Below, piece by piece: positions 7,545-54,296 of a DNA stretch of 64,000 nt. A program made the translations under genes and the position numbers. The DNA is from Harriotta raleighana (Eukaryota): NCBI GenBank assembly GCA_050575255.1, contig JBNZDD010013718.1, forward strand, positions 1,808,253 to 1,872,252, read 5' to 3'. The stretch's first letter is position 1. The number at the start of each line of letters is the position of its first letter. The notes under the pieces are model-generated. The model worked only from the letters and a program-made list of their open reading frames with translations, had not been told where the DNA came from and searched no databases.

Positions 7545-7722
7545 TGCTAATTTCTTCGGGCTGATCCCTATTCCACATGCCTAATAATAATCCATCCCTC
7601 CAAAAAACTACGATAATAAAATTGGTCATTTCAATCCATGATTGGTTTGTGGGACACTGCTGTGCGCAATTGACATCGATAAGATGTGAAAAGCGCAATA
7701 TCAAATGCAAGGATTATTTATT
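7545..7722 (+). mobile_element. SINE of the same family, partial with internal deletion
   Basis: tttgtgggacactgctgtgcgcaattg ... aaatgcaaggattatt. Confidence 0.85.
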
Positions 7723-8451
7723 CACAGCAGGTAGCCATTCAGTCCACAGTGTCTGTGATGGTTCTCCTGACTAAAATTATAGCACAACTTTATATATTTT
7801 TAAAAAATCTTAATCAAACTATTTATTTGCAATTCTCAAGTCTAATTTACCCAGCAAACATATCCAGTTTACACATGCACAAGGCACCTTTCGTTTTGTA
7901 ATTTCAGACTAGTTTTTTTCATATTAAAAAAAAATCAAACACCTCTCACTTCAAAGTGAAGATTTCTCAGTAACGTTGGATCCCGAACAAACAAACTTTT
8001 CCTAACCACATCTGCAGCATTAAACTGATTATTAACGCTGCTTTTTCACACCCATAATCAACGTAGGACAAACTGAAACCGGGCACTTTTCACAACAGGA
8101 ACCTGGCATTTTTCACAACAAGAAACTAAGAGGGTGGGTGAGGGGGTTAATTATACAGTCATGGATAGAATAACTCATTCTCCATTCACTCTGTACAACA
8201 GACCCATCTGTTGCTCAGAGGCAATTCATTATTTTCATTCCGCACACACGTCTATCAATTTAAAATATTACATTGACTGCATTTGCTTATTTTACAGCTT
8301 GTGAGTTTACAGTGAACACGTGTTACGCATCAAAATGATGGATAGCTCAACCTCCGTAAAAGATTTCATTGCACAGTAAAGAGCAGGGAGCCCAGAGCAG
8401 TCGTTTGCTCTGCCGTCCGACCTTCCATGTTAAATGATTCATCTTTGCTCC

Positions 8452-8552
8452 ACAAATATACAGTCAAGTCACTTCACAGTATATACTGTGAAGCGCTTTG
8501 AGACGTTGATAAGATGTGAGCGGCGTTATACCGAATGCAAGGATTATTATTA
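8452..8552 (+). mobile_element. SINE 3' fragment
   Basis: gtgaagcgctttgagacgttgataagatgtg...gaatgcaaggattattatt. Confidence 0.85.
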
Positions 8553-8713
8553 CAATCGATCAGGAGAAAGCTCTCGTCACGTGCAATTTGAGCAACTTCC
8601 TTCTTTGAGAGCGAAAACAATTTTAATTGGAACAGTATTAAAGGCGACTTACTGGTGCGTCGAAAGAAATTGACTAAGAATTGTGTATGCAGAATTGTGT
8701 ATACCTGGCAAAT

Positions 8714-8979
8714 TTACATATGAGCCATTGGGTTGTTAGTGTCAGTGAGGCCAGAGTGTGTACCAGGGTGAGCAGCAGAGTGAGCAGCAGAGTGAGCTGC
8801 AGAGTGAGCAGCAGAGTGAGCTGCAGAGTGAGCAGCAGAGTGAGCTGCAGAGTGAGCAGCAGAGTGTGATCCATGGTGTGCTCCCGAGTGTGCTCCAGGG
8901 TGTCCCTCTGCTGATATGGCAGAAGATTTCTCTTCTTCCCTTCTTTTAAGGCAGGCTGCTTTCGGGTTCAGGTTCCTCT
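8714..8979 (-). CDS. TCF12: TCF12 exon 20 equivalent, last coding exon (exon continues to 8705), with (HSAA)8 insertion
   Basis: ttaaag acceptor; (E)[17 protein letters not shown]...NPMAHM then TAA; CAG|gtatac donor 9 nt after the stop. Confidence 0.96.
8771..8866 (-). repeat. Coding minisatellite, 8 x 12 nt CACTCTGC(T/A)GCT, encoding (HSAA)8
   Basis: Eight contiguous 12-mers counted directly; the two variants mostly alternate, giving a 24-nt higher-order period. Confidence 0.97.
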
Positions 8980-9523: not shown

Positions 9524-9753
9524 CTCGGACCTGTTGTTCCAAGCTGAGGATAACGGCGACTGCTTGATGCAGAATAAGTAGCTTGGTTTGGGGCTTTTCA
9601 CTTTTCATGTGAAGTTGACACATGCGTCCGAGCTCCTTAAATGCCTCATTGATGTCTCGTACGCGAAGACGCTCTCTAGCATTATTTGCCATCCTCCTCT
9701 CCCGTTCCCGTTCCGCTTTTTGCTCGGGATTTAGGTCGTCGTCTTCGTGATTA
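9524..9753 (-). CDS. TCF12: TCF12 exon 19 equivalent, 230 nt, bHLH domain
   Basis: acgcag acceptor, GAG|gtcagt donor; [59 protein letters not shown]. Confidence 0.98.
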
Positions 9754-10201: not shown

Positions 10202-10364
10202 CTGGATCTATCCCCCGATTGGAGTTTATCACTTTTGGATCCATCCTCGTCTAATCCCTTGTCATCAGATGAGAAGGAGTCTCGTGTATTCTCGTCCTTC
10301 TCCTCTCGTTTGACATCAGCTTGACTCAAGGCAACAGTCTGACTTTGCAAACTACTGGACGGTC
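10202..10364 (-). CDS. TCF12: TCF12 exon 18 equivalent, 163 nt: (G)PSSSLQSQTVALSQADVKREEKDENTRDSFSSDDKGLDEDGSKSDKLQSGDRS
   Basis: gtatag acceptor, CAG|gtaaaa donor; phase 1 to 2; acidic pre-bHLH region. Confidence 0.92.
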
Positions 10365-10527
10365 CTATACACACAAAATAAATACTAATAAAGCAAGCCC
10401 CAGGTCAACTGCGGTTTCCACGCACAAACAACATAAATTATTTTTGAAAAGATTTATTTCGGTTCACTTATTATTCAATAAAATGCACAACGGTGTCATT
10501 TAGAATTAGATTACTATGAAGATATAC

Positions 10528-10642
10528 CTCTGCAGTTATCCTGTGGATGGTGATTTAATTCTGTACTTGTTGGGGGAACTGTACTGGGGAGGATCGAATG
10601 GCTGTTATGGAGACTGACAGATTCATCCCGATGAGAACCAAC
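10528..10642 (-). CDS. TCF12: TCF12 exon 17 equivalent, 115 nt: VGSHRDESVSLHNSHSILPSTVPPTSTELNHHPQDNCR
   Basis: ttatag acceptor, GAG|gtatat donor; phase 0 to 1. Confidence 0.93.
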
Positions 10643-13600
10643 CTATAAAAGACGACAATTTATTCTACTATTGCCTACTATGGAATAATTACCATACGGA
10701 TAATTAAATATAAGTATATATTTTTTTTAAATCATGAAACGGGAGTGCTATTATTCCACGGCTTCAGCATAAATTGTTTTTAAAACAATTTACTTTATTT
10801 GGCAAGCTGTAACACGTAGCTTTAGTCATAACGTTTAAATAACGTGTTGCTATCCCAATTCTTTTTTGTGCGAATAAAAAAAGTCAAAAGCTCTATGAAT
10901 ATGAAGGTGTTGAAACAATATGAATGGTGCAGGAATCAAAAAATACTTCACTTTCATTACAGCAGATGAACGAAAAAATGCTCAATTATGTGGATCACAG
11001 TCACAGCAGGCTGTAGAGTTTACGCGCACCCTCACAACACAAAATTAAACCACAGTTCAGTATGATCTGATCCGCATCACAACACCCACAGGTGCACAGC
11101 CCGGAAAAATCAGGAGCAAGAATCCAGAGTGATATTTTCCTCCCCGCGCAGCTCAAGGCAACGAGTTCAGCAAGACGCTCCATTCTTCCAAGAGTTGGGA
11201 GTGAGGAAAGAATGATTGAGAGAAAAAGGCAACCATATCCCACTTTGAACAGGCGATCTGCTACAGCGATGAGAGGAGAGCTTTCATGCATGATATTTGA
11301 TGGGACAATTTTAAACAAAGAGGAGATATCCACAGAAATCGTGGTTCGTTAATGCCAAACAATGACCCAATGAAAAGGTGTGTGCCTTCAGGCTAGAACA
11401 CATTCATTTGGAATGAAGCTTCACCTTGCAATCCAACGTAGGCGAGGGGAGTATTGTACTGCAGGTGTGAGACATCCTGATGATATAATAACCAATCCCA
11501 TGCTGGCTGGGGCGAGTTTATTCAACGCAGACCTTGCTAGTATCTTGATTAACTGAATGACTCACTGCCACACTATGTACTCACTTATATTTTCTGGAAA
11601 ACTGAGAACATCAGAAATGTAAACTCCCCATTAGAAATGCCAGTGCGAATGCCAAACCCCCAAATTGCTCTTGGGCGCACATATGCCTAATTTACTCCCA
11701 TAAGACGTCTAATTAAAATAGCATATGTTCAAATATCAGGTTTAACTATAGTAGCAATGGTATCGCTTTCGGCTTTTATATTGGTTCAGAATGTCGGACT
11801 TATTCAAAATGTGTTTTCTTTCCTAAGCATGAAGATTTAAGAGCCGAATTGTTCCGAAAAAAAATTCTCCATCAAAAGTTGGTGAAATATTGATAATGCT
11901 ACACTGATTTCAAAAGATGTAGAAGCTCAAAAAGGCCATCTTTTGTTATTATCACCCAAAATAGATCTACGATTTGTTACATGTTGTGATATTGTTGCAG
12001 ATTCTCCTCCATTTTGATGAATCTCATAAATCCCATGTCTTAAAAGATTTTTTTTTAAAATTCACCACAAGATGATAGTGAACAAGCAGCAGTTTATTCT
12101 AACCCCTAAATTAGCCTCAGATAAACTTACATCAATTAGAATAAACTATTTAGTCACCTTGACTAAAGCCAAGTGAGTTTAGCAACCCTCTGTTAGACCT
12201 CTCCTTTCATACAAAAATCTTGACTTGAGATCCAAGTAATAGCATCCATTGTTGTTGCCTTGATATCCTGATAAAAAAAATTATAACTGTTTTAACTATT
12301 TCATACTTGATTTTTAATGATAGTACTCACAGCTCTAGATATAATTACTGTATTCTTTGTTTCTCATAGTCACAAAACTAAATTTGTTCTCAGAAAATTT
12401 TGTAATTTTTCATTTTCTGATAACTGAATTTAAAATTCAATTCACCCATTTAATTATTATAATCTCCTGGTGAGAGACATCAAACAGTTTTTCAGTATCC
12501 AACGTCGAGGAGATGGAAACAAATTCACTTTGGTTTTGTCCACTTCAAATAGTCGCACTGAAATCAATTGTTTACTTGGGATAGTTTTGTGATCAAGTCA
12601 GATTTGTTTTATATTGGATGGATGATTAAATCGTCCAATTAATGTGCAAGTTTCTTCCAATTCCATGCACGTTCTAGTCCTGTATACTCTTTCCTACACT
12701 TCAAGCTGAAAAATTAGGTGCGTAATTTTCCAATTTACCCATGAAAGATGTAATATTAGCCACACAAAAATAAATGTGATACACAATCTGAAAAATTGCG
12801 ATAGTTAGCAAATCAAACAGCTATTACTACTCTGAGCACCTGGTGGCGATGATGCATCAGTTCTATCCACATAGCATTTAACACACAATTGGGCTCAACA
12901 GTCAGTTTATACATTGGAGGAATAATTCCATTTTAAGCACTTGGAAATGTCTTTCTGGAGTTGCGCAAATTACATAAAAATAGTATGTTCAGTCTTCACC
13001 AAAGCACTACATTATGGTGAGAGATCTGCACATAGCTCTTACAATACCTTTCATTTTAGAATTGTAATTTTGATATGATCACACAAAAGTAAAAACCTTC
13101 CCCAAATTCTGAGGTATTGCGAAGTTCACCAAACTTACCTTCTACAGTATTTCCAATAATTAAATGAGCAGCAAGAAATTGACATGCTCAGGTTTAGCCT
13201 ACTGAAGGAAGCAAAAATCACACCTATCTTTCAAGGTTTCCTATTAAATTTCCAAATGCTTATTGAAAGATTGTAATAATTATACTTTAATTTATATCGC
13301 GTTTTCCACATCTTATCGACGTCCCAAAGCGCTTTAGTACAGTATGTTCTTACTGTGCTGCCATTTTTGAGCATGTAAATAATACATGTCAAGGAGAGAA
13401 AATCCTGAGAAAAAGTAACCTTAATGTAAAAGTGCTCTACAAACAACCAGGGGGAAAAAAAACACACTGGTGGACTTTTAATATTTTTCATTGGAGTAAA
13501 AATTTTCAGAAAGGTTCTGAACACTGTTCAGCATTTTAAAAACAGATATCACGTTGGTCAAAATCTATTTTGGAAAGTAATCATTACAAACTCCTGAACT

Positions 13601-14874
13601 CCTAACTGGCTCAGACCAGCCTCAGACCTTCTTTTGATGTGAGCTATTCTGCAGCCATTGCTGCCCAGTAACATTTGGTATGGGCGGGGAAATCGGACAC
13701 ATATTTTAAAATTGTCATCATGCCATCTGGCAGCATGATGTAAGCATTTGTTATGCTGGGGCAATAGTGAATGCATGAGATTTAATGTGATTTTTAAAGC
13801 AATGTGTTACAAATTAATAATACATCAGGGATATATATATACACACACACAGAGTCGGTATGAACACTATTTAAAAATCTATCTACACGCATCTAAATAA
13901 CCAGTTTTGCATGATTTTACAAAAACCCGATACAATGTAAATCTTGTTTTATCAAGCAGATCTATGTGGTTTTACACGTAAAGAAGATTTTCACCAATGA
14001 GCCTGTCCAAACACCAAACTAGAACAACCCAGGAAAATCTTATATTATCTAACCCTGTAAAGATTATCAATTTTGTTTTTACCTCAATGGGCTCTGGAAC
14101 TGTGGAAATAAAGAATAGAATGTTGACATTTTGCCCAATTTATTATTCTCAGGGGTCCAAAGGCTTTGATGTTTACTGCCATGACTGTAGAATTAGAATA
14201 AATTGTTCCCAAATGCAAGAATGAATTTGGAATCGGTTCAAACTATAATAGTGTAACACAAAAGAAACCTGCACTGTTGAGATGTGACTGCCTTATTCTT
14301 GTATCGTAGCAAAACCAAAAATCAACTGTATTTTCCGCCCAGAGTATTCGTCCGCTTTGTCGCAAAGCAAATTTACAGACAAGTTAAAGACCATCCTATT
14401 CAAGAATTCTCTCAGATTTCAATGAACGCAGCCACTAACAGTCTCTAAATATGGTTCTGTCAGTCCATCTCCACCTCACTTCCATCTGGGCACATTGAAT
14501 ATTTTCTGGGTCCCATCAACTGCTTAAAATTCCTCTTCCCTTGGAAGGTCAAATCATTTTTAGACAAGATTTTCTGGTGACAGGATGATTATGCTTGTTT
14601 CCTCCGAGACCCACTAGAAGATTTCCAGCCTCAAATAAGTTTGGATTATAATTGTTTGCATACTTGTGGGATAAAGACAATAAAAGGGGAAACGAGAGAG
14701 GATTAAGCAGGATGGTTGGTGTTTGTGTAGAATCTAAACACAGGTACGGACAGAATGACCGGTGCTGTAATTTTCTATCTGATTCTATGTTTCTGAAGTG
14801 TGGACTGGATGAGAAGAAGGTGGCAGAAGACAGGCTGTGGATGTCCATGTGTTTCATCTATAGTTAGTAAACAA

Positions 14875-15120
14875 GCAAATGGAGAGGTTAGAATTTTTTC
14901 ACATAGAGAATAGGTAGGATAAGGGAGGCAGAATCCATATTAACTTTCAAAATGGAACAAAATACCTAAAAGGAAGTAAAGTGCAGAGGTAATGGGGAAA
15001 ATAAGACTGAAAAGATCAATAAGACTGAAAGGATTGCTCATAAAAGAGTCAGCAGAGACAATGGGCTGAATGACCACCTTATGTGTTGTCAATTTCTCTG
15101 GTTCTATCTGCTCTATGATT
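14875..15120 (+). mobile_element. CR1-like LINE 3' remnant
   Basis: ggattgctc...agagtcagcagagacaatgggctgaatgacc...ttctat tail; similar to 54423-54543. Confidence 0.6.
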
Positions 15121-17798
15121 TTTTGTTAAATCAATGGTTCCCACATTTTCAACGAAGGTACCATCATTTGATACTATCTGGGGACTCGTGTATATATTGC
15201 TTCCCTCCACTGATCCTTCCACTACAGCTGTGCTCAAAACCCTTTCGCTAAAAAAAGCTCAATTTCAGAACCACAAATTACACATTCCTGTAGCTTGTTT
15301 TTCTGTTCATGTTGCCAGTAGCTCTGTTTCTCAAAGTCATTTTCCAAGTTTCTGCAACTCAGGGCCCAGCTAGCCTGTTTTACCCATTTGCTCCATAAAC
15401 TTCTAGGACATTTGTGCCAGTTCTTACACATCTGCAAAAAAATGCAACTATAATCTAAAAATCCTCTGTGGAAATAATTTTCTCCATATGATTACAGCAG
15501 AATCTCACAAGGCTTTGCACTGTTTTCTTTTACAGGATTAGGAAAGAGGGAAGAAATACATTTGGACCACAAAGCAGGTGTACTTTATCCCAATTTTCCT
15601 GCTGTCCAGAGAACTCCCATTTACTCTTGAAAAATGATTAATATTCTTACAGATTTAACTCCATTAAATGTATTTTGCTTCTCCTGCAAAACTGGCTCGA
15701 TTACAGACTGGCTACACTCAGAGACTTAATGTGAATTTGATGATTTTTTTCTTAATGCAGCATTCTGAGTTTTATCATTAGTGACTACAACTGTCCATGG
15801 AACAGAGACCTAGCCGTCAACAATAAGAATTACTCTGCTAAACAAGTTTCATACAATAAATCCTGCCACAATGCAAATGTAGCCATCGTGTGGAAAACAA
15901 AATAGAAACCATAATGCCCACGCAAACAAATTAAGGCATGGCATTTCCTGACAATCGATCATTTACATATCAATCATTAATCTTTCAGCATACATGACAC
16001 CCTACATCAAGAGGAGTGCATTCAGTCACATCAGCATATCAGCACCAAAGTGAACCAACCCTCCTCACCTTATAAATGATCGATAAGTAGTATGCACAAA
16101 AAATATAACCGAGAAAGTGTTAAGACAATAATCCCATCTTGTTTCAAACACTATTTTTGTGTGTATAAGTGAAATTTGCCATATTAACAGTAAATTCAAT
16201 TTAACAGCTACTGCTAAATTTAAGCTTACATAATGTAGGGCCTACACAAGCACATTTTAATCAAATTGACCCCATACATAAATCATTTCCATTTATTCAA
16301 ATTAAATGTGCATGGAGTTAATTTGATTTCAATTTATTCCTGATAATTCAGCTCAACTAAAAATACAATTTGCTAAATATTTTCAATAAAACTTTCAACT
16401 TCCAAACTACGCTCAAACAGATAATAAAATTCTTAGATTTTACAAATGAATATAACTTTCTTTGCCTTGGAAAATGAATGGAAAGCTTAAAAGCTTGACA
16501 TAAAACTAAGCGTTTGTAGGCACAAGGAAATTTAACGAGCAATCCATTTATTTAAAAGAATTAAACTCTTTAGATTGATGTTCACATTGATCTTGTGCAA
16601 TGTTGTAAATAGTTAATTCCAAAACGCTAATCATGTCAAAAGTACCTTTAACAGCGAGAATAAAATTTACAAACATTTTTGCTTTTCTTTCCCCATTTCA
16701 ATTCTTTCTGCGACTTTCTTGTCCAATCTAACTGTATTTCAATTTCTTCCAAAAATGAAATACAGTACATTTATTTATTCAGCCTCCCAAAGTTCTCACT
16801 TCCAAAATAAGACGGTGGAGCCACATTAAATAGAATAGATTTTTGGGGGCAAAAACTATCGCTAGACTATCGCTAATTTACATTTTGGCCAACCCCAAAA
16901 GGCACAAGAGTAATGATTGATATGGTTGCATCAACCTATCTCTGATGTGGATGATTCAGAAATTGGGGGCGTTTGACCATTACTGTGTTGTTCAGACATT
17001 TTAATACACAACAGCTGTCCAATCAGAACACGTCCACATTGCAACAAATATAATATAAATAAAAATAAATAAAATAAATAAATAAAATGTGGTATAAATG
17101 CTGGTGATCTTATTGTGGCAGCAGATTATGCATTACCACAATTTGTACGTGTAGCAAAACACAATTTTAGAATCGAATTTAATGACACATGGCATTATTG
17201 ACACTTTGCCTCCATACAAATCACCCATGGGAGATTTTTTCACCACTCGTTGATATTTCCTGAACTCAATCGCTGTAACATTCAATTAACAAAATGCAAT
17301 GCCTTGCAACCTAAACTCAAACAAAAAAAAACTCTTAGACACATCGTGGTGAGTCCAATTGCACATGGTGGCAGTTCACAGTGCGACAATGTGTATTTAT
17401 CCAGTGTCTTTCGTGCAAACTGTCTCAAAGAGCTCAAAGCCAGAGGAGGAAATGAAAATGAGAGATGTAAGGACATTAATGAAGTGATGGTCAAAGAGAT
17501 GCTTTCTCTTGGGTGGTTTTTGAAGGCAAGGAGAAGGGGAGCAAGGCAAAGTTTGTGGCTTATGCCACAAATGCTGACCTACACATTTTGACTGTTGCAT
17601 GAAAACCTGAATGATTCATTATATTAATCTGTTGAACGAGTGGACATTCCGAAATCCAACGAGTTTATCGAACCTCATTTCAACAATAGCTATTTGCTGC
17701 GGCAATCAACTTCGCCTTCGATTTATTGCGGTAGAAACTAAAACCCGTCAATAAAGAATTTGGCACCTTTCTGCTTTCTGAATATAGAAAATAATTAC

Positions 17799-18005
17799 CA
17801 TTGATGCTTGTCGGCTGGAAGTTACCAGCACAGATGCTCCATAGTTTGAATGCAATCCTCCAATTGGCCCATTTTGTGATGGTCCCAGTAAACTATGCAT
17901 TTCACTATGGCAACCAGACATGCTTGTTGAAGGCCCTACAGCATGGTTTCTTAGAACGTGGATAGCATCATCCAATCGGTCTAAGCGATCCTCCATTCGA
18001 GTCTG
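17799..18005 (-). CDS. TCF12: TCF12 exon 16 equivalent, 207 nt: [24 protein letters not shown]...SSRQASM
   Basis: caacagCAG tandem acceptor, ATG|gtaatt donor; [12 protein letters not shown] motif. Confidence 0.97.
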
Positions 18006-18395
18006 CTGTTGAGACAAATACGGTGATAGAACAAACATATTTTCTCTGGCACACATCTGATCAACTTAAATGCACTGTGCGTCAGTTAGTGTGTTAGGTA
18101 TAACCAGAAAAAAAATGCCCACAAAAAACACAAATGGTTGCAACAGCAGCTACAGGCATTTGATGGGAAAAATAAGTTCAAATTGTGTGGATATCTGGTA
18201 AAGTGTTTTTAAAAATATATATATATATGTGTGTATTTAAAATCTATGGATTTCTCAAGCACAAGTAACAAACGGTTGTTTGATGTGCTCCTTTATCGGA
18301 TGTGTAAATCTTCAAGTAAAAAGGAATGGTTTAAAACAAAGTGAAAAATTGTGTTTCAAGGCCGGAAGAGATTCATGGAAGAGTGTTGCAGCTCA

Positions 18396-18572
<177 letters not shown>

Positions 18573-19364
18573 TTAATACAAACAAAAACACTTAGAAAGC
18601 TCAGCCAAGCCAATGGGTTAAATAAGTGAACGGCGGAACCATTTTAAAAATTGTTAAAAAGAAGTAAACAGAAATTTAGCCATCAATGATTCTGTGCTCA
18701 TTTCAGAGTGCATATAGACATGCAGGCTGTTTAAATGGAAAGCGAATTGCACACATCTTTTATTTTCCCTATCTGATCTACAGTTTCTGCCTTTGATCAC
18801 ACACCATCAGTAAATCCCCCCCTCCTCCACCAACCACTAGGAGAATGATCCTTTTCCTAAATCTTTCTGTAGAAATCTAACTCTCCTATTAGCACCTCAA
18901 TTCTGATGCTCTTCCTCAGATTATATTTTTTTTTGGGTGATGGGGTGGCGATTGGAAGACTGAACTTGCTTTCAATATAGAAGATTACTAAGAGAATCCA
19001 TTTTACTGTGAGTAAACTAGCTCAATGTATTGTTAAAATGAAAAAGTGGAGAATGTCAAAAGAAATCAGTGGAGCAAAATCTACTCGTAGAAGACAAGCA
19101 TGAAACAACAACAACCAAATGACATTTGCATTTCAAGTGCCTTTCATGTCAGGAGGACAGCCCCAGGCGCTGGAAAGTGCAAAGTGAAAGTGAAAATGAA
19201 AAGTGGACTGGTGCATCGGTAACGGCGATTGCGACCTTCACTGTTGATTCTCTCTCCAGTTCACTTGCTAGAAGGACTGGCAGTGCGGGGGTATTGTTAA
19301 GCTTTCATATTCAAACTACAGCTGGCAGTAAAGGATTTCACAAAGCGGGTCAGGTCTGTCTTAC

Positions 19365-19435
19365 CAGTGAGTGAAGAGAGTTTTCATAGTTGGGAGATGA
19401 AGGGGTCGCTCCTGGTCTCGACCACTGGTTAGCGC
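19365..19435 (-). CDS. TCF12: TCF12 exon 14 equivalent, 71 nt: (G)ANQWSRPGATPSSPNYENSLHSL
   Basis: aaacag acceptor, CTG|gtaaga donor; phase 1 to 0. Confidence 0.94.
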
Positions 19436-20544
19436 CTGTTTAGATCAAGATGTCCACAGGAAAGTTGCACGTTAGGGGTGTACAATTTGAAAAAAGATAC
19501 AAGCTTGAAACACACAAACACGATGCATCAAATTGGGAAGAATCCATTGGCTGAATGTACCATTTCAAAAAGTGTGTCGAATAAAGTAAATATGTTCAGG
19601 CTCCCTGGAAAGCAAAATCTGTGTCATTCAGATAAATCAATGCTAAGCGACTATAATCAGAACTTTACAGTACTGTACAAACCTTTGAAATTTTTAAGGT
19701 GTAAACTGATCACATTTTCACCAGAAAATACACCACAAAATGCAATTTGGAGCATTACGTCGCAGATATGAAATGAAACCATAATGTACCTTTCAACATC
19801 TACTACGAAAGATAAAAATGAAACTGAATACTATACACGATACCATTCAACAATGATGGGTTGAACTACAATAATATTTGCTTACTTTCCTTTATGCAGT
19901 CAAGTTGGGAGTTTCGAAAAATAGAAACATTCTGAACAAGTAACGTCATCAGAAAAATTCAGTGACTGCCTCGATTACAAAAGCTAATCAAGTTAAACGC
20001 ATGGATATCTGGTCATCGGATTGCTACCAGTCGGAGTCATATCATGCTGAGCAGTCATCACATTTAGAAACTGGGGATGATTAATTTCAAAATAATTACA
20101 TTTTACAGCTGTTTGAAAGTTTTCGGGAAGGAATGTGCTCGCATTTCGTATTAAACACTACAGCGGATGTTGGGTGATCTGTACATTCCTTGCTTGTTAG
20201 GCATAACTAACTCTACCAAGACTTGTGTTGTTCATAACGACGCTTTTAACCAAGGCTGGATTTGTCTCCAAATCATTAACCAAAAAAGTTCTGAACCCAT
20301 TCCAGCTTAATCCGGACTCTCTCAGGGGTATATTTCGTTCCTATGGCTGTTCCAAAATGCACAAATGTGAATTGGCTGCAATCGTGTAACATAAATCTTC
20401 TTTCCCCATACCATTTTTGTCTACTCACCATACTAGCAAAATCTAAGTGCCATCAATGAAACACTGCTGTAATGCCTGGCAACTTGCAATGTCTTTGTGC
20501 ACACCAAACAATGGCCATCTCGTAAGGCCTCTCATTTCTCTAGG

Positions 20545-20960
20545 TAATAATAATATTGCTTACACTTAATATAATGCCTACATCGTCAGAGCACCCCAAA
20601 GCACTCTATGGGCATTTTCTGACCTGTGCTGTGATTAATTGTAGGCAAACATGTCAGCTAATTTGTTCACACTCAGCAATGTCCACAAATAAACAGGGAA
20701 TGAATGACCAGTTGATTTGGAGAATTATTGGGATAGTACATCAGGAAAAAAACGCTCTATCTTTTCAAACAGTATTACAGGGATTTTAAAGACCCCCTGA
20801 ACTGGCAGATGGAACCTCTGTTTTAATTTCCTACAAGAAGGACCACACTTATGACAATACTGCGATCCCCAGCACCTCACTGGAGCATCAGCTGTGAGCT
20901 AAATGCCAGTAAAATTTGATCAATAACTGACCCAAAGGCCAGGATGCTGACTGACCAAGC
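20545..20960 (-). mobile_element. Old, diverged DeuSINE (AmnSINE1/SacSINE1-like)
   Basis: gggattttaaagaccccctgaactggcagatggaacctctgttttaa...cactggagcatcagc resembles the reverse complement of the Deu domain (recalled consensus). Confidence 0.65.
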
Positions 20961-23024
20961 AAATAGCCAAGATGACATCTTTCTGCAACGGAGGGTACAT
21001 TGAAGAATGCAATCTGTAGTTGATTCAGTTGGTTAATGGAGTGGGGGGGAGATGGGAAATCAATTAGCCACGAGGCTGAGTCCTATTAAGACTACTAACC
21101 AGAGATTCTAGTGAAATCATTCAAGATTTTGCTGATCAAACTGATACCTTTTATTTCGGAAGGGCATCCTTCACAATATTTTTCCACCAACAGAGAACAG
21201 GGGTAAAAAATGATTAAAGTCAGAAAATGAATGACATCTAGATTTAAACATTGAAGAAAGGAAAAGTTTTAGGAAATTTTAAAAATAGGATTTACGCTAA
21301 TCCCACTCCAGAAAAAAAGTTACACAAAAGTACAATTTAAAACATTTTGGGGACGTCTTTCTCGCTAATAGCTTTGAAATGCTGCTTTGTAATCAGCAAA
21401 GTGCACCTGTGTAAATCTCCAGTTCTGTTCTGCAAGATCAGCAAATTAATCGACACGAGGCATTTTCATCTTGAATGTGACCACAGAATCAAATGAGAAA
21501 CTCATTAATCCCTCATTACACAATTCAACAAGATGCATTTAGTTATTACTGTAAGAACTGCCTGAAGCAGCTGTTCAGTAGTAGCGCACAGATTCAAACT
21601 AAAGCTTTGCACTTTTTCCCTTCCCCAAAAAAGCAATTCAACTCAATATTCACAGCCAGTTCTCCAACTCTACATACAAATAATCTGGTAACCAGTGTTC
21701 CCTCGTGAATTATAGGTAAATATAATTCCCTGGCTATGTCAGTTCGCCCGTGCTAGAATTCGAACTTCCTAAACTATTGGGGATAAAGAAAAGTCAGTCT
21801 TGCGAAAGGTGCCTGAGTAACATCAGCTGTGTATCTGGAGATAAGCAGCAGAGATAAACTTAGTGTACGTGGCAGGATCCAATGGATCCCGATATAGTGG
21901 ACACTTGTATCTCATCTATACTTTAACATTCCACAGCAAATCAGATAACCGAATAACAGCAAATTAATCTGAATAAAAGACTCTCAAATAAACTGTTCTA
22001 TAGATAACAGAGGCAATGGGAAGAACCATTAATCGAGTAGGAAGGACTTTATTGTACATCACAACAATGCCGTGAAAAAAAATATGCCCATCTGTATGAG
22101 GGTTCAATAGCAAACTACAGTAATGTATAAAGCAACAACTTGGGTATCACGACAGTGTTCCTGTGGAAAGTTTAGCCAAGTTGACAAATGTCGCAGGTTT
22201 AACCTGAATAATGTTGTTAATAACATGAGGTCTTATTTCTATGGCAACTTTCGTGGAAAACTCCTGAAACAGCATTCAGAATATTGAGCAGCTGGAAAGT
22301 ATTGCAATGCATTCATTACAAGCAACTTACATTGGGCTGAAACTAACTTTCCATGAATGCTAATTGAGTACAGTAAATGAAGACACTCCCAGCCCTCAAG
22401 TTTTCCAAAAGCTACATTGGATCTTCACAAAGTTTGGAAGGTGGCTGACAAGCTATTGACGTTGTTGAGAATTTACTGAAACAGATTAGCTGTCGTATTT
22501 TCCCCATTCAAGAGTCACCACACTTCAAAGTAAACCACAACTTGAGAATGTTCAGCGTAATAAGATGCAACATTAAATATAAATATTTGTATTGAAATTG
22601 TAAGGCGCCAGATTAGAAATCTGAAACACATGCCAAACTCCAAAATAGTCAAAATCGGCATAGACGGAGTTTGATTCTCCCTAAATATATGTTTCAAACA
22701 GCTGTAAATGTGGAAAGCCCGACCACCAAAGGTGGGAGTGGGAAGAGCACAAGACAAGGAGCAAGCCAAAGCGGAGAGAACGGGCAGACTGGTAGCATTT
22801 TAGTAGGTGGCGGAGGTAGGGAGGAACAAACCGCAAACAATAGTCATGTGTAAAACAGGACAGCTTCAAGTTTAAGACTTAAATAAATGTCAACGTTTTC
22901 GCCAGTTGCACAATACTTTGGGAGGTTAAAAACGTAATAGATGTGATAGCAATCAAGCTATGTCTCCTACTTTGTTGGATTGTAGGACTCTGCAAACTCT
23001 GGGAGTTGTCAGGTTTCTCATCTA

Positions 23025-23189
<165 letters not shown>

Positions 23190-24667
23190 TCACTTGTTAC
23201 TTGCATGAAAATTGTACAACTGCAATATCTGCCAAATTTTGATTCAGTTCTTCTGTAGGTAATGCAGCAATCTTGCAACGAACGAGTTGCAAAAACTGGA
23301 TCCATTAATTCTCCCAACTGTCTCCACACCCAAGTGGCTATAAAATTGTTCACAACATTTTGGAAGGCTTAAAATTCTACAGCCTACCTTCGAATAAGGC
23401 GCCAAGCCCCCAGAATACATTCTTTGCTGTCACAAAAAGTCACAAAAGAATCAACACATTTTAAGAAACCTGCTACCTATTTAAACAAATGCACTGCAAA
23501 TTAAAGTTTGGGATTAGATACTGTGTATGGCACAATATGATGCCTGCAAACATAACAAATAGGATTTGTCATCATCAGAGCAAAATCTGGGCACACAATG
23601 CTTAGGAAATTTCAAACTCCGTGCTGATATTTTTGTCAGGTGATAATCCATACAACCATTAATACATAAGGCCTTATGATGCAACACATTTACTTATTCC
23701 GCCAGATGCTGAAGTTGAAGTTAGGCAAATTGTGGCTTTGACTTAATGAAGCTTTTATGCATCAAGTTTTACTTTTTTCCAACAAAAAAAAAACCTGGCA
23801 CTGTGAATTCTTGAGAAACCTATAACTCAGCAAAGCATTTTCCAGCAAAACAGTTGCAGATGTAATTGAATAAACTACTCAACAGACAGAAACCGTTCCT
23901 CCAAATACCTTCTGCTGTAAACATTCTTTATTAAACAATATATGAAGCTCCGCTTAACAGGTGTTCATGATTCGGATGCCACGGTAAGGATTATGAGTAG
24001 GTGAATGCAATGATCTGCCAACCACAGTCTATCCCTGGAGGTTTTATTTTTAAGCCTATTTCAGATTTTATACATCTTTGTACAGGTAATTTTATCAAGA
24101 TCACAATTTAAGAGACCTTCATTTATGGCTTGTTTACCAAAGCTCTTCTACATGCATGTACTAATCAGCAAAATCTCAATAACAGCAAAAATAAATTAAA
24201 TTTGTTACGGACAAAGCTTTATTTTTTTAAAACTGCGCAAGATTCAAGTTTCCCAGTTTGGCACAAACTGCTGAAATAAACCAAATGTTTCAGTTATAAT
24301 ACATCAGATTATGGGCATTTTCTTTTTAAAAAATCTCCATCTTCATTAAAAAAAATTTTTTTGTTTAGGGGATGAAGAAGACCCAGAAAAGATATGAACC
24401 ATTTCAGTCCTGTCGTCACTGCCAAAGTGACACAAAAGTCAGTTTTGCTGTAATTTGCGCCGTCATTTGACACGTTAGAAAACCATAAACTGTTTGCCAG
24501 ATTTTCTCTCATATAAAGTTGGTGCAATTCTGATGGCTTTAATGGGAGACGTGCAGAAAAAGATTAAGAAGATCCTATCGCAACAGTGTCCGGATCCAAC
24601 AATTTAGTGGAGCACAAAGAAAAGCAATCAAAAAAAAATCTACTTCAGTCTCCATTTTTGAACGGTA

Positions 24668-24736
24668 TTGTGAAGTGCACTGAGACGCTATCCGGCGTGG
24701 AGAGCGCTATATAAATCAAAATTGTTGTTGTTGTTG
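24668..24736 (+). mobile_element. Isolated L2-type 3' tail; similar tails at ~1250-1320(-), 13275-13335(-), 19105-19175(-), 37445-37510(+), 53338-53410(-), 59207-59260(+), 60530-60593(+)
   Basis: gagacgct...gcgctatataaat...(gtt)n motif. Confidence 0.7.
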
Positions 24737-50558: not shown

Positions 50559-53500
50559 CTGAAAGACAAATAACGTAACCATCACACAATTCTTGCACCG
50601 ACTGCTCTTCTTGAAACACTAGCTGGTACCAATTCACGTAGTCACAAATTGCAGAGCAACAGCATAGTCTGTTGAATTTCAATCACTATTGAAAGTTGTT
50701 TTTTTTGAATATAGGGTGTTGGGGGGGTGCGGGGATGGGTGGGGGTAGTGGGGGGGGAAATGTTTTGAATCGGAAAATGGGAGATCATTTCTGAAGTAAG
50801 TACCTTAAGAAGCGACTGACCAGTGGGAAATAAAGCGCGAATCACCCCCACAAAGATTAATGCGTTAAAAACCCCCCCCATACAAACACACACACACTTC
50901 CAAGAATGGAGCGAAATGAAATACATCAGTTAATGTCCAATTCAGCATGCAGCTCTCATGCCAGTCCTCTAATCGGTCATGGACTGCTGGGTGAATGCTA
51001 CAATATTAATCCAAGGTCAAGAAGTATGCCAACAAAACAAAAGGATTCTTATGATGGATCCAGGGGGCTTCTTATGATGGATCCTGTGGTTTTCAAATTA
51101 GCTTGTCATTTTAAAATCAATCATCGTCCCAATTCTCTCCACTTCTAAAAAAAAATACACACGTGGCATTCAAAAGCTCAAGCTATTTCAACTCAATGCA
51201 GGAAATGTACTTTGTATTATTTCAGAACGTGTGTCAAAATTATTTTACTCCGGATTTTTCGCACACTTCCTGGATTAATCCTGTCTCCTCCTCCATCCCC
51301 CCCTCCCCCCCCACACACGGAATTGAGCTATACGATTAATTTAATTTGCCTATGTATTTACAATCACAACAAATTAAATACAATATCAGAACTAAATCAG
51401 TACCTGAATGCACTATTTGGATTGACAAGTGCACTTTCATAAAAGACTGCTGATAAGTCGATTTGCTATATTGTTCAACAAGGCAATATATGCGAGCAAT
51501 ATGCTTGTAATAACCGATAACTTTGCAAGGCAAAAATGTAGGTGATTATTTCAGAAAGATATTTTCAGGCAAATTGGTTCTCTGTTATTTTGAAAATCGT
51601 TGGATATCTGAATGTGTTTTTTTTTTAAAAATGTTACAACCTCAACTTTAGACCAACATTTTACACCATTGATTACTGCTTGATGGTGCCCTTTGGGATA
51701 TTGGAACATTCAGAGAGAAATTCTCCATGGAAAACAAAAGACCAAAAGAAGTTCTTTGCACATCTGCCCCAAACTAGTGATACCAATTCATATTAACTAG
51801 ACAAATCCTCAGTATAATTAATACAGAAGGGCTGATTTTTTTTTGGCATCTATTATTCAGCTGTTAGTCTAGTTGTCTGGAATAGACAATGGGGGGGGGG
51901 AGAAGGGGTTTCCATTTTGAAATATGGCCTTAAACCTTTCAATTATTCCACATTGCATCCTATTTATTGTAAAGGATGTACTGCAGTAGTAAAATCTGCA
52001 TGACTTCAAAATAAATAATCTGAAAACACACTCTATTAATTTAAGTGTTTGTTTGGAAAAATATTTGCAGCTCAAAAGAACCCATTGTCTTCTCCACAGA
52101 AAATACAGTGAATGGAATTTAAAAATTAATTAGAATTTAAAAATGCTAAGATGAAGTCCTAACCAATCCCCCACACTCCAGGCTGTGGCTGTATCCATCG
52201 TTCAAGTTGACAGAGGCAGTTTGGCAAAGTCGGATTATTTCAAACAAAACAATCTTAAATGAGTAATCAATAAGAGCCGGCAGAAAATGAAACCAATTAC
52301 GATGCTTTCTCCAATGTTTTGTCCTGGACAAGGTTCCATTAAATGGATTGTGCTAACCTGCATGGCTTGAAGCTGAACTAATGGGCATTACTACATATTC
52401 AAATTTACTTTGGGAAGAAGGCGCAAGGCAAAACAGGAAAGGTACGAATTTGACAAACGTATGATGTTGCAACAACAACAATCATGGCAAAAGTTTTCTT
52501 TTACTGAGCAACAAAAACATCTGTAAGATAGTAAGGCTTCAAGGCAGTCTCCTGAAATTTTAATTATCATCTTTGACGCTAAAATGTCTTGCAGACTTGA
52601 GGAGATAATGACAGTCATCCATCAACTACATCCTGCCAGAGTAATCAGGCTAATCTAACTCACTGGAGTAAAAAAAGACAGCAACCTGGGGTACTGAGCA
52701 CTAAGGCACTGTAACATAATAAACAGATGCAAATAAATGACATTCAAGCTCAGAGTTCTTTGATTATCAGCAGCTAAAATAATGCTACCGCATCTTCAGA
52801 TTCAAAAATAAACTTAAACTTTGTTGTAATTATTGGAAACCAACAAACTTGTTATTTCCGCACAAGGTTCATTAAATCCCTCAACTTTCACTGTTGCCAA
52901 AGTACAAAATAGAACAATGGAGCACTGCTCCTCTCTGGCAATTCCCACATCAACTTTGCAGTCGTATCTCCACCAAGCTTGGAAGCAGTCCCATTTTATA
53001 ATGGTTCTGTGGTAACGAGACATGGCCAAAAAGTGAGATGAACTGAGTCTATTGTGGATTCTGCAATCCAACAAGTCAGTACTTCAAGGCACTGGCTCGT
53101 CATCCAGACTTCTGATGATCTGGGTGAAGAGATTTATTTTCCTCCAAAATTTCAAGCAAATTTGCTGAAGTGCCGAGTGGCTATCACTGGACAAGTAGAA
53201 CAATTTCGACAAATCCAACATTAACCCAATGTTAGCTTCTCTCATCCCATCTTTATCTGGTCATCAGCGAGCAAGGGCTGTCTCTCCTACTTCTCTATTA
53301 ACCAACTCTTTTAGTTGGTTTGAGGCAACAAGTGCAAACAACAACAACAACACAACAAGTTACATTTGCACAGCGCTTTCACATCAGGAGGACGTTCCAA
53401 GGTGCTGGCTGGACAGTCAGGACAAATTCAAATGGTAAGCAAGTGTAGATAAAATTAAAGTAAAACCCTTAAGATTTCCGATCAAATCAAATATTTGGTT

Positions 53501-53674
53501 TCTTTCTTAAATCTAAAGATTGATAGGCGCTTTCAACTGGTAGCTTTTCCCAACAGCTGCCATTTGCACGTACAAAGTGGGTTTCAGATCCTATTTTAAC
53601 AGATGCTATAAATATTCCAGAATAAATTGAATGTCACAAATAATCAGTGTCATTTTATTTTGAGACACCACAAG

Positions 53675-54000
53675 TGGGACTAAATAATGCAGTGTGTCAT
53701 AACAGTGTCCTTTCACCGTTGGGACCTAGGTTTGAATCCAGCCTAGACTAACGGGCTGCAAGTCATCTTTCTGATCATTTTAGCATTGCTGTATGAAAGG
53801 AATTCGGGCAGTCTCAAACCGATTCCTTCTGGACATGCTCTCACACCAAACACATAACTGCCCCCAAATTTGTGACAAATGGGACAGTTTCACGGTGGAT
53901 ATGGAAATATCACAACGATAGGGAGTGTTTTTCGGACACAGTGTTTAAAGGCATGCGGTTGGAACAGTGGATAAAGGGAACTTTGCTCCGTATCAAGCCC
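53675..54000 (+). mobile_element. LF-SINE-like element
   Basis: B-box-like ggtttgaatccagcc followed by co-linear blocks resembling the recalled LF-SINE consensus. Confidence 0.6.
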
Positions 54001-54177
54001 TGAATGTATGTCTAGGTTTTGAGTGCATCAAGCTAACCCAGGTTGTCAGAAGGAAAAAGCGTTCCTTTGAAATCAAACGCTTTATTTTCTTAAACATGTT
54101 CATACTAATGTTTTCAACAAGAGTACCCACCGAACAATAGTATAAGAGGTATTTAGACAACAAAACCGTGGACTTAC

Positions 54178-54242
54178 TTGGCACACTGGTATTCCTGCGT
54201 CTCTGCCATATGGTGGCCGCGGACCTCTTTCTGAAACTTTCC
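54178..54242 (-). CDS. TCF12: TCF12 exon 6 equivalent, 65 nt: (G)KVSERGPRPPYGRDAGIPVCQ
   Basis: ttctag acceptor, CAA|gtaagt donor; phase 1 to 0; resembles recalled human [22 protein letters not shown]. Confidence 0.9.
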
Positions 54243-54296
54243 CTAGAAGTGAAAACAAAATCATTGATAGGATTGTATAGAAACTGGAAAACGCTC

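Follow-up and report, generated by a model that had tools for sequence, protein, structure and literature searches.

A periodic histidine tetrapeptide array in the C-terminal tail of TCF12 (HEB) from the holocephalan Harriotta raleighana

The window analysed here is a 64,000-nucleotide stretch of the Harriotta raleighana genome (contig JBNZDD010013718.1, positions 1,808,253 to 1,872,252). Its minus strand carries TCF12 (HEB), recognized by 15 exon matches to Callorhinchus milii TCF12 that run from 54252 to 8717 (Table 1); the gene's 5' end falls outside the window. Identity to the C. milii protein is at most 538 of 553 residues over query positions 105–657 (an upper bound, the best match being taken for each residue), and the 24-codon alternatively used exon at 18468–18539 (minus strand) is identical to C. 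milii isoform X1 in 24 of 24 positions. Phylogenetic analysis placed the gene as sister to C. milii TCF12 with support of 99/97, in a short tree that omits P0033 and P0122 (both missed by the motif filter), and the other three E-protein loci are separate. These data support orthology to TCF12, not to TCF3 or TCF4, and agree with the first-pass annotation, which had named the gene HEB.

The layout of a class I bHLH E protein is present, with the bHLH domain followed by a conserved segment that we take to be domain C. Within the last coding exon, residues 1–18 are invariant among 14 aligned E-protein tails. Domain C is described as necessary for dimerization in human E proteins (PMC4511211, citing Goldfarb 1998). 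The repeat array begins eight residues past this segment, which is itself unchanged, and the gene that carries the array is intact. The reading frame is open from the array through the conserved TCF12 end motif to the TAA stop codon; since this motif follows the array in frame, the array is presumably translated. A GT donor-like site lies past the stop, at 8704. Further downstream, the interval 7763–7720 (minus strand), likely part of a 3' non-coding exon, matches the alternative C-terminus of the C. milii model P0006 in 8 of 13 residues. P0006 exits the repeat after four units, which reflects either a splice from within the repeat or a gene-model error.

Table 1. Features of the TCF12 locus (positions in the window)
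Feature	Position	Strand	Basis or remark
Thirteen upstream TCF12 exon matches	10204..54252	-	Compared with C. milii isoform P0205
bHLH exon	9524..9750	-	PF00010, E 1.1e-11; 5' boundary approximate
GT-AG intron before the last coding exon	9523-8980	-	Sequence
Last coding exon of TCF12/HEB, coding portion	8714..8979	-	Runs to the TAA stop at 8716-8714
Conserved segment after the HLH	8927..8979	-	Eight residues separate it from the first unit; helical in AlphaFold
Three older His-led units (12 residues)	8867..8902	-	HSGA-HHGS common to C. milii
Young pure block, eight 12-nt units, (HSAA)8	8771..8866	-	Units 0-1 base apart
Synonymous A>T, first HSAA unit	8858	.	3/3 X12 reads, 0/3 X11 reads
Two last units, HPGT and HSGL	8747..8770	-	Align with the ancestral TCF12 pair of vertebrates, His-x-x-x-His
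Putative 3' non-coding exon, start	7717..7766	-	Acceptor-like site near 7766

At the centre of the array are eight near-identical in-frame 12-nt units (Tandem Repeats Finder: score 181, period 12) that are distinguished solely by the wobble position of their third codon, which reads T,A,T,A,T,A,T,T from one unit to the next. With the three units before and the two after this pure block there are 13 His-led tetrapeptides, which place His at positions 27, 31 and so on to 75 of the exon translation and create 12 adjacent His pairs spaced by four residues. Both the eight units and the 13 His periods had been reported in the first-pass annotation and were recovered here; the array lies where it had been placed, except that it extends 8 bases further, to 8747. 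Ala makes up half of the residues of the pure block, with a longest run of two. The array as a whole has two Pro and no Gln, and His accounts for 14 of its 52 residues, again with a longest run of two. The pure units differ pairwise by 0–1 base; the three older units are 2–4 bases apart from each other and 3–6 bases from the pure units (an overall range of 2–6). The block of eight is thus a recent layer on an older repeat. When the 1.10-Gb assembly was searched with a 29-nt exact pattern taken from the repeat, only the TCF12 locus matched (six overlapping matches; control, none), and an origin from a dispersed repeat or transposon was rejected on this ground.

Raw reads were available as three sets (X11, X12 and X13) from one sample, possibly the source of the assembly itself. 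Read depth over the array is 1–3 in X11 and X12 and zero in X13. One 150-base X11 read (8737–8886) and three X12 reads (8745–8876) account exactly for the binned depths, although the X12 reads have common ends and may represent only one or two molecules. The fitted reads run through the array into both flanks with eight units, and no indel was listed, in agreement with the unit number first reported. An assembly error could be suspected from the thin read support and from other signs of imperfect assembly in the window, where duplicated stretches sit beside single Ns. However, the read-depth fits and the expansion seen independently at the same site in C. milii make it exceedingly unlikely that such an error accounts for the unit number. 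We regard the observation of the array as confirmed and an artefact as unlikely, if on thin read support. Length polymorphism, which had been suggested, was not seen in the two read sets of this one sample, which cover very few molecules. Elsewhere in the window, identical stretches at approximately 34017–35044 and 35419–36446 are offset by 1402 bases, with one N (35303) in the gap. A duplication of 144 bases (901–1187) sits next to Ns at 1044 and 1200. Both are likely to be overlap artefacts of the assembly. A very-high-copy repeat fragment is found at 8440–8560, just downstream of the stop codon, where depth rises to tens of thousands compared with 1–3 around it.

In the public predicted proteins of the C. 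milii orthologue (XP_042200001.1–XP_042200004.1, RefSeq predictions; P0005 and P0204–P0207 in our set) a corresponding array of His-led tetrapeptides can be seen at this place. It differs in having seven mixed units, only two of them HSAA, and in being predicted as disordered throughout. Both tails hold the same 12-residue sequence and the closing pair of units, from which we infer an ancestor with about six or seven units. Outside these two species Lithobates has three His-led units and the other sampled TCF12 tails have one or two: two in rays, coelacanth, bichir, paddlefish, amphibians, turtles and birds, one in jerboa and lungfish. The short mammalian linker described in the first-pass annotation is borne out by Jaculus (P0066), which keeps one His there. 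In 46 distinct canonical-length TCF12-type tails His occupies position 30 in 42 and position 34 in all 46, mostly as His-Pro-Gly; these counts lean towards His, because the searches were ranked by a His-rich query (best 120 of 6023; 76; 26) and passed through a length-and-motif filter.

The comparison comprises two holocephalans and rays of four genera (Mobula, Hemitrygon, Hypanus and Rhinoraja). Among the matches listed in the homologue and representative searches and in the cluster listings there was no holocephalan TCF12 other than that of C. milii, and the only shark sequence was a Mustelus fragment of another paralog, so that shark TCF12 tails lie outside the sample. The three paralogous E proteins of the same genome have short tails without expansion. 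The array therefore consists of in-frame tandem units in one paralog only, and their number differs between species. A de novo, species-specific origin was rejected, given the ancestral His pair and the C. milii array. Alignment of the C-termini places the expansion in holocephalans, on top of a His pair that is nearly universal among the sampled tails. The lineage specificity proposed in the first-pass annotation thus holds only for the young pure block, since the spacing is ancestral and seven units are already present in C. milii.

Chimaerids are estimated to have split from C. milii about 187 million years ago (PMC12952989, on Chimaera phantasma); if H. raleighana is counted with them, the array has been kept for that time, and its long retention argues mildly for function. 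All seven distinct unit types of the two species keep their His, whereas positions 2–4 took at least seven changes; under a simple neutral site-count model this retention has P of about 0.06–0.08 and is not significant. Moreover, the His codons of the array are CAC in 13 of 13 cases, synonymous base included, so the low rate of change at this position need not mean selection on the residue. Since unit number and sequence both differ between the two holocephalans, no fixed geometry has been kept. A representative search returned period-4 His arrays of 8–24 units in 10 of the 18 non-E-protein matches that were examined, several of which look like translated tetranucleotide repeats; the pattern evidently arises readily. 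An independent His-rich, His-Pro-like stretch occurs in insect-type Daughterless fragments (P0198 from Cataglyphis niger, P0168, P0181, P0186 and P0193), right after the same conserved segment as in TCF12.

The genome holds four E-protein loci: TCF12, TCF4, TCF3 and one more. Three of them each share a contig with a top-scoring CUT-domain gene, which we take to be ONECUT. The fourth gene lies at C13415:90883–100628 (plus strand; loci L033, L020 and L010) and consists of open exon matches, with a PI4KB exon upstream and fragments downstream that are presumably UBAP2L-like; a Pfam search of six neighbouring fragments left five without identification. Its bHLH is identical in 56 of 56 residues to the Mustelus asterias ‘TCF4-like’ protein P0184, with which it groups at 100/100 in the short tree; the deeper placement is unsettled in that tree. 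The fourth E-protein paralog of the two rounds of vertebrate genome duplication (2R) has been supposed lost before the jawed vertebrates diverged (PMC8199221). It is plausible that the gene is a surviving 2R ohnolog and possible that it is a chondrichthyan duplicate of TCF12. The papers listed in a literature search included none on it. For research on E-protein and immune evolution, the possible survival of a fourth 2R paralog among cartilaginous fishes may be of greater importance than the array. Near the TCF4 bHLH exon, at a distance of about 450 bases, there is also a weak match to the bHLH query on the opposite strand (C13731:2336497–2336628, plus strand, L014; 57%, E 4e-6).

Growth of the array by replication slippage from the ancestral His-led tetrapeptide pair is likely, and to that extent the slippage proposed in the first-pass annotation stands. 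The 24-nt unit proposed with it is plausible but unproven: of the 56 possible orders in which five T and three A can stand at the wobble base, four alternate as much as the observed one. Two His four residues apart are present in vertebrate TCF12 tails. From these, duplication in the holocephalan stem lineage would have produced about six or seven units, which would then have diverged. One HSAA unit would have been amplified recently in the H. raleighana lineage, perhaps partly as a 24-nt dimer. The resulting tail follows the bHLH and domain C, and at neutral pH it would be mostly uncharged and disordered; with this placement, low charge and disorder, dimerization and E-box binding should be left intact. 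The His at every fourth residue would simply follow from the length of the 12-nt unit.

The first-pass annotation had also proposed that the His at i,i+4 could form a metal-binding helix. In its fullest form this would mean that Zn, Cu or Ni bridges His pairs in the pure block, folds the tail and thereby regulates HEB. Helices that carry such pairs are well known as metal sites in protein engineering (PMC3994163), and AlphaFold, run without an alignment, predicts a helix over residues 40–70 (pLDDT about 77–83, pTM 0.31). A Lifson–Roig estimate (with residue helix propensities, side-chain and capping terms left out) gives the pure block only 1.5% helix, compared with 84% for Ala32 and 40% for (HAAA)8. 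In this model an extra 0.75–1 kcal/mol per unit would raise the helix content to 33–62%, but 0.5 kcal/mol yields just 10%. The older units common to both holocephalans are Pro/Gly-rich, and in C. milii TCF12, folded with 25 sequences, helices extend through residue 654 while the repeat has pLDDT below 50 (residues 652–692) and no helix. Helicity would thus be conditional and confined to the new block at best. No further structural guide came from Pfam (nothing at cut-off for the repeat tail), from the PDB (10 related sequences, no TCF12 tail among them) or from the Atlas (no usable match for the C. milii tail).

The geometry and the supply of metal weigh further against a metal-triggered helix. 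A strict period of four turns each successive His by 40 degrees on a helix, so that the stripe circles and presents no single metal face; the mean resultant of the eight His is 0.125. Neighbouring His on a helix could still chelate, with at most one metal per two units since each bridge uses two His. A prediction with two copies of the exon product and four zinc ions scored 0.01, which speaks neither for nor against. Labile nuclear zinc is reported at 0.1–0.2 nM in HeLa cells (PMC8963189), whereas a two-His sheet site binds Cu with a Kd of 0.3 µM and a related engineered sensor works at 0.1–5 µM zinc (PMC3994163). From these literature values, zinc occupancy would be 0.002–0.2% per site and any of the 12 pairs would be occupied in at most about 2% of tails, unless multi-His sites bind far tighter. 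The engineered sites (PMC3994163) share the His spacing with the HEB tail, but they sit on pre-folded scaffolds and respond to metal at sub-micromolar to micromolar levels, while the fold of the tail is at most predicted. We therefore consider the metal-binding proposal weak, and a metal-triggered helix very unlikely.

The predicted helix, together with an Ala content of one-half, would also suit an alanine-rich module in which the His are incidental and which recruits a co-repressor or co-activator, as alanine tracts do in HoxA11 or PHOX2B. There are precedents for such gains (PMC4540963; HoxA11, bioRxiv 2020.02.19.956243). However, the block offers no hydrophobic face, and its longest Ala run of two falls short of the uninterrupted run by which polyalanine is defined. 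With only two HSAA units in C. milii, the module would moreover have to be very recent. We judge this reading highly improbable.

A His-based modulator under selection has more in its favour; a pH-sensitive or condensate-promoting role had likewise been suggested in the first-pass annotation, and such tuning may or may not occur. It would gain about six positive charges per tail, or twelve per dimer, beside the DNA-binding domain as the pH falls from 7.4 to 6.5, and would so change condensate, chromatin or cofactor contacts. The 70-residue tail has 15 His and a computed charge of +1.7 at pH 7.4 and +7.5 at pH 6.5 (assumed pKa 6.5, unsmoothed). With 6 His per 20 residues and a shift of +5.8 it has the density and charge shift of the BRD4 type, for which the His-rich disordered region of BRD4 is the precedent (PMC11118380). 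The charge threshold of the BRD4 screen is passed by 18,596 mouse regions (PMC11118380), so passing it says little. The HEB tail resembles the BRD4 region in being part of a nuclear regulator, disordered, dense in His and low in charge; unlike that region, the tail is Ala/Ser-rich and strictly periodic, has neither a His block nor a Pro/Gln block, and contains no aromatic residues. TCF4 phase-separates in vitro, but the predicted drivers of its condensates are N-terminal, not C-terminal (bioRxiv 2025.06.18.660356). Every unit type has retained its His over a long time and the last His is invariant in the 14 aligned E-protein tails, although the retention is not significant, as noted above. Overall a selected pH or cofactor modulator appears doubtful, if worth keeping in view. 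We also entertained the broader idea that holocephalans turned a two-His HEB motif into a length-tunable His ladder, switched between coil and helix by pH or metal and adjusting E-protein activity, for which tails of 2, 3, 7 and 13 units would form a ready allelic series; this we think improbable.

On balance the array is probably a coding 12-nt minisatellite that forms a tolerated, flexible low-complexity tail and tunes activity only slightly, if at all. The single locus, the unexpanded paralogs, the disorder predicted in C. milii, the low helix estimate and the differing unit number all speak for a tolerated tail. Against it count that the array was kept and extended in two holocephalan lineages, that His is kept in all unit types, that AlphaFold draws a helix over residues 40–70 and that a His-rich stretch recurs in ant Daughterless. 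Also on that side, repeats gained by one 2R paralog are reported to alter activity in the cases tested (PMC4540963; HoxA11, bioRxiv 2020.02.19.956243).

Known systems resemble the array in part. As in the paralog-specific low-complexity regions described by Rado-Trilla et al. (2015; PMC4540963), one ohnolog gained an Ala-rich region outside the DNA-binding domain. The TCF12 array differs in being a periodic-His tetrapeptide without a homopolymer, found in holocephalans only, and its effect is a candidate one; TCF12 does not appear in the main text of that paper. With the polyhistidine speckle signal (Salichs et al., 2009; PMC2644819) it shares the character of a His-rich transcription-factor tract outside folded domains with more than six His. 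The tract definition there asks for at least five pure His with interruptions below 50%; the His of the array make up 27% of the tract and run to two at most, so it falls outside that definition. Among the papers listed in our literature searches, which covered few subscription papers, there was no account of a His array in the TCF12 tail.

As most likely read, the array is a repeat that one ohnolog grew out of a conserved tetrapeptide, in a lineage that evolves slowly, and as such is of modest interest. It does provide a natural series (1–2, 3, 7 and 13 units) for testing if spaced His, rather than runs, can tune a transcription factor. This question was left open by Salichs et al. (PMC2644819), who suggest that His spacing may matter and report no specific code. 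If the tail did prove responsive to pH or metal, it would represent a novel mode of control for E proteins, the regulators of lymphocyte and neural fate.
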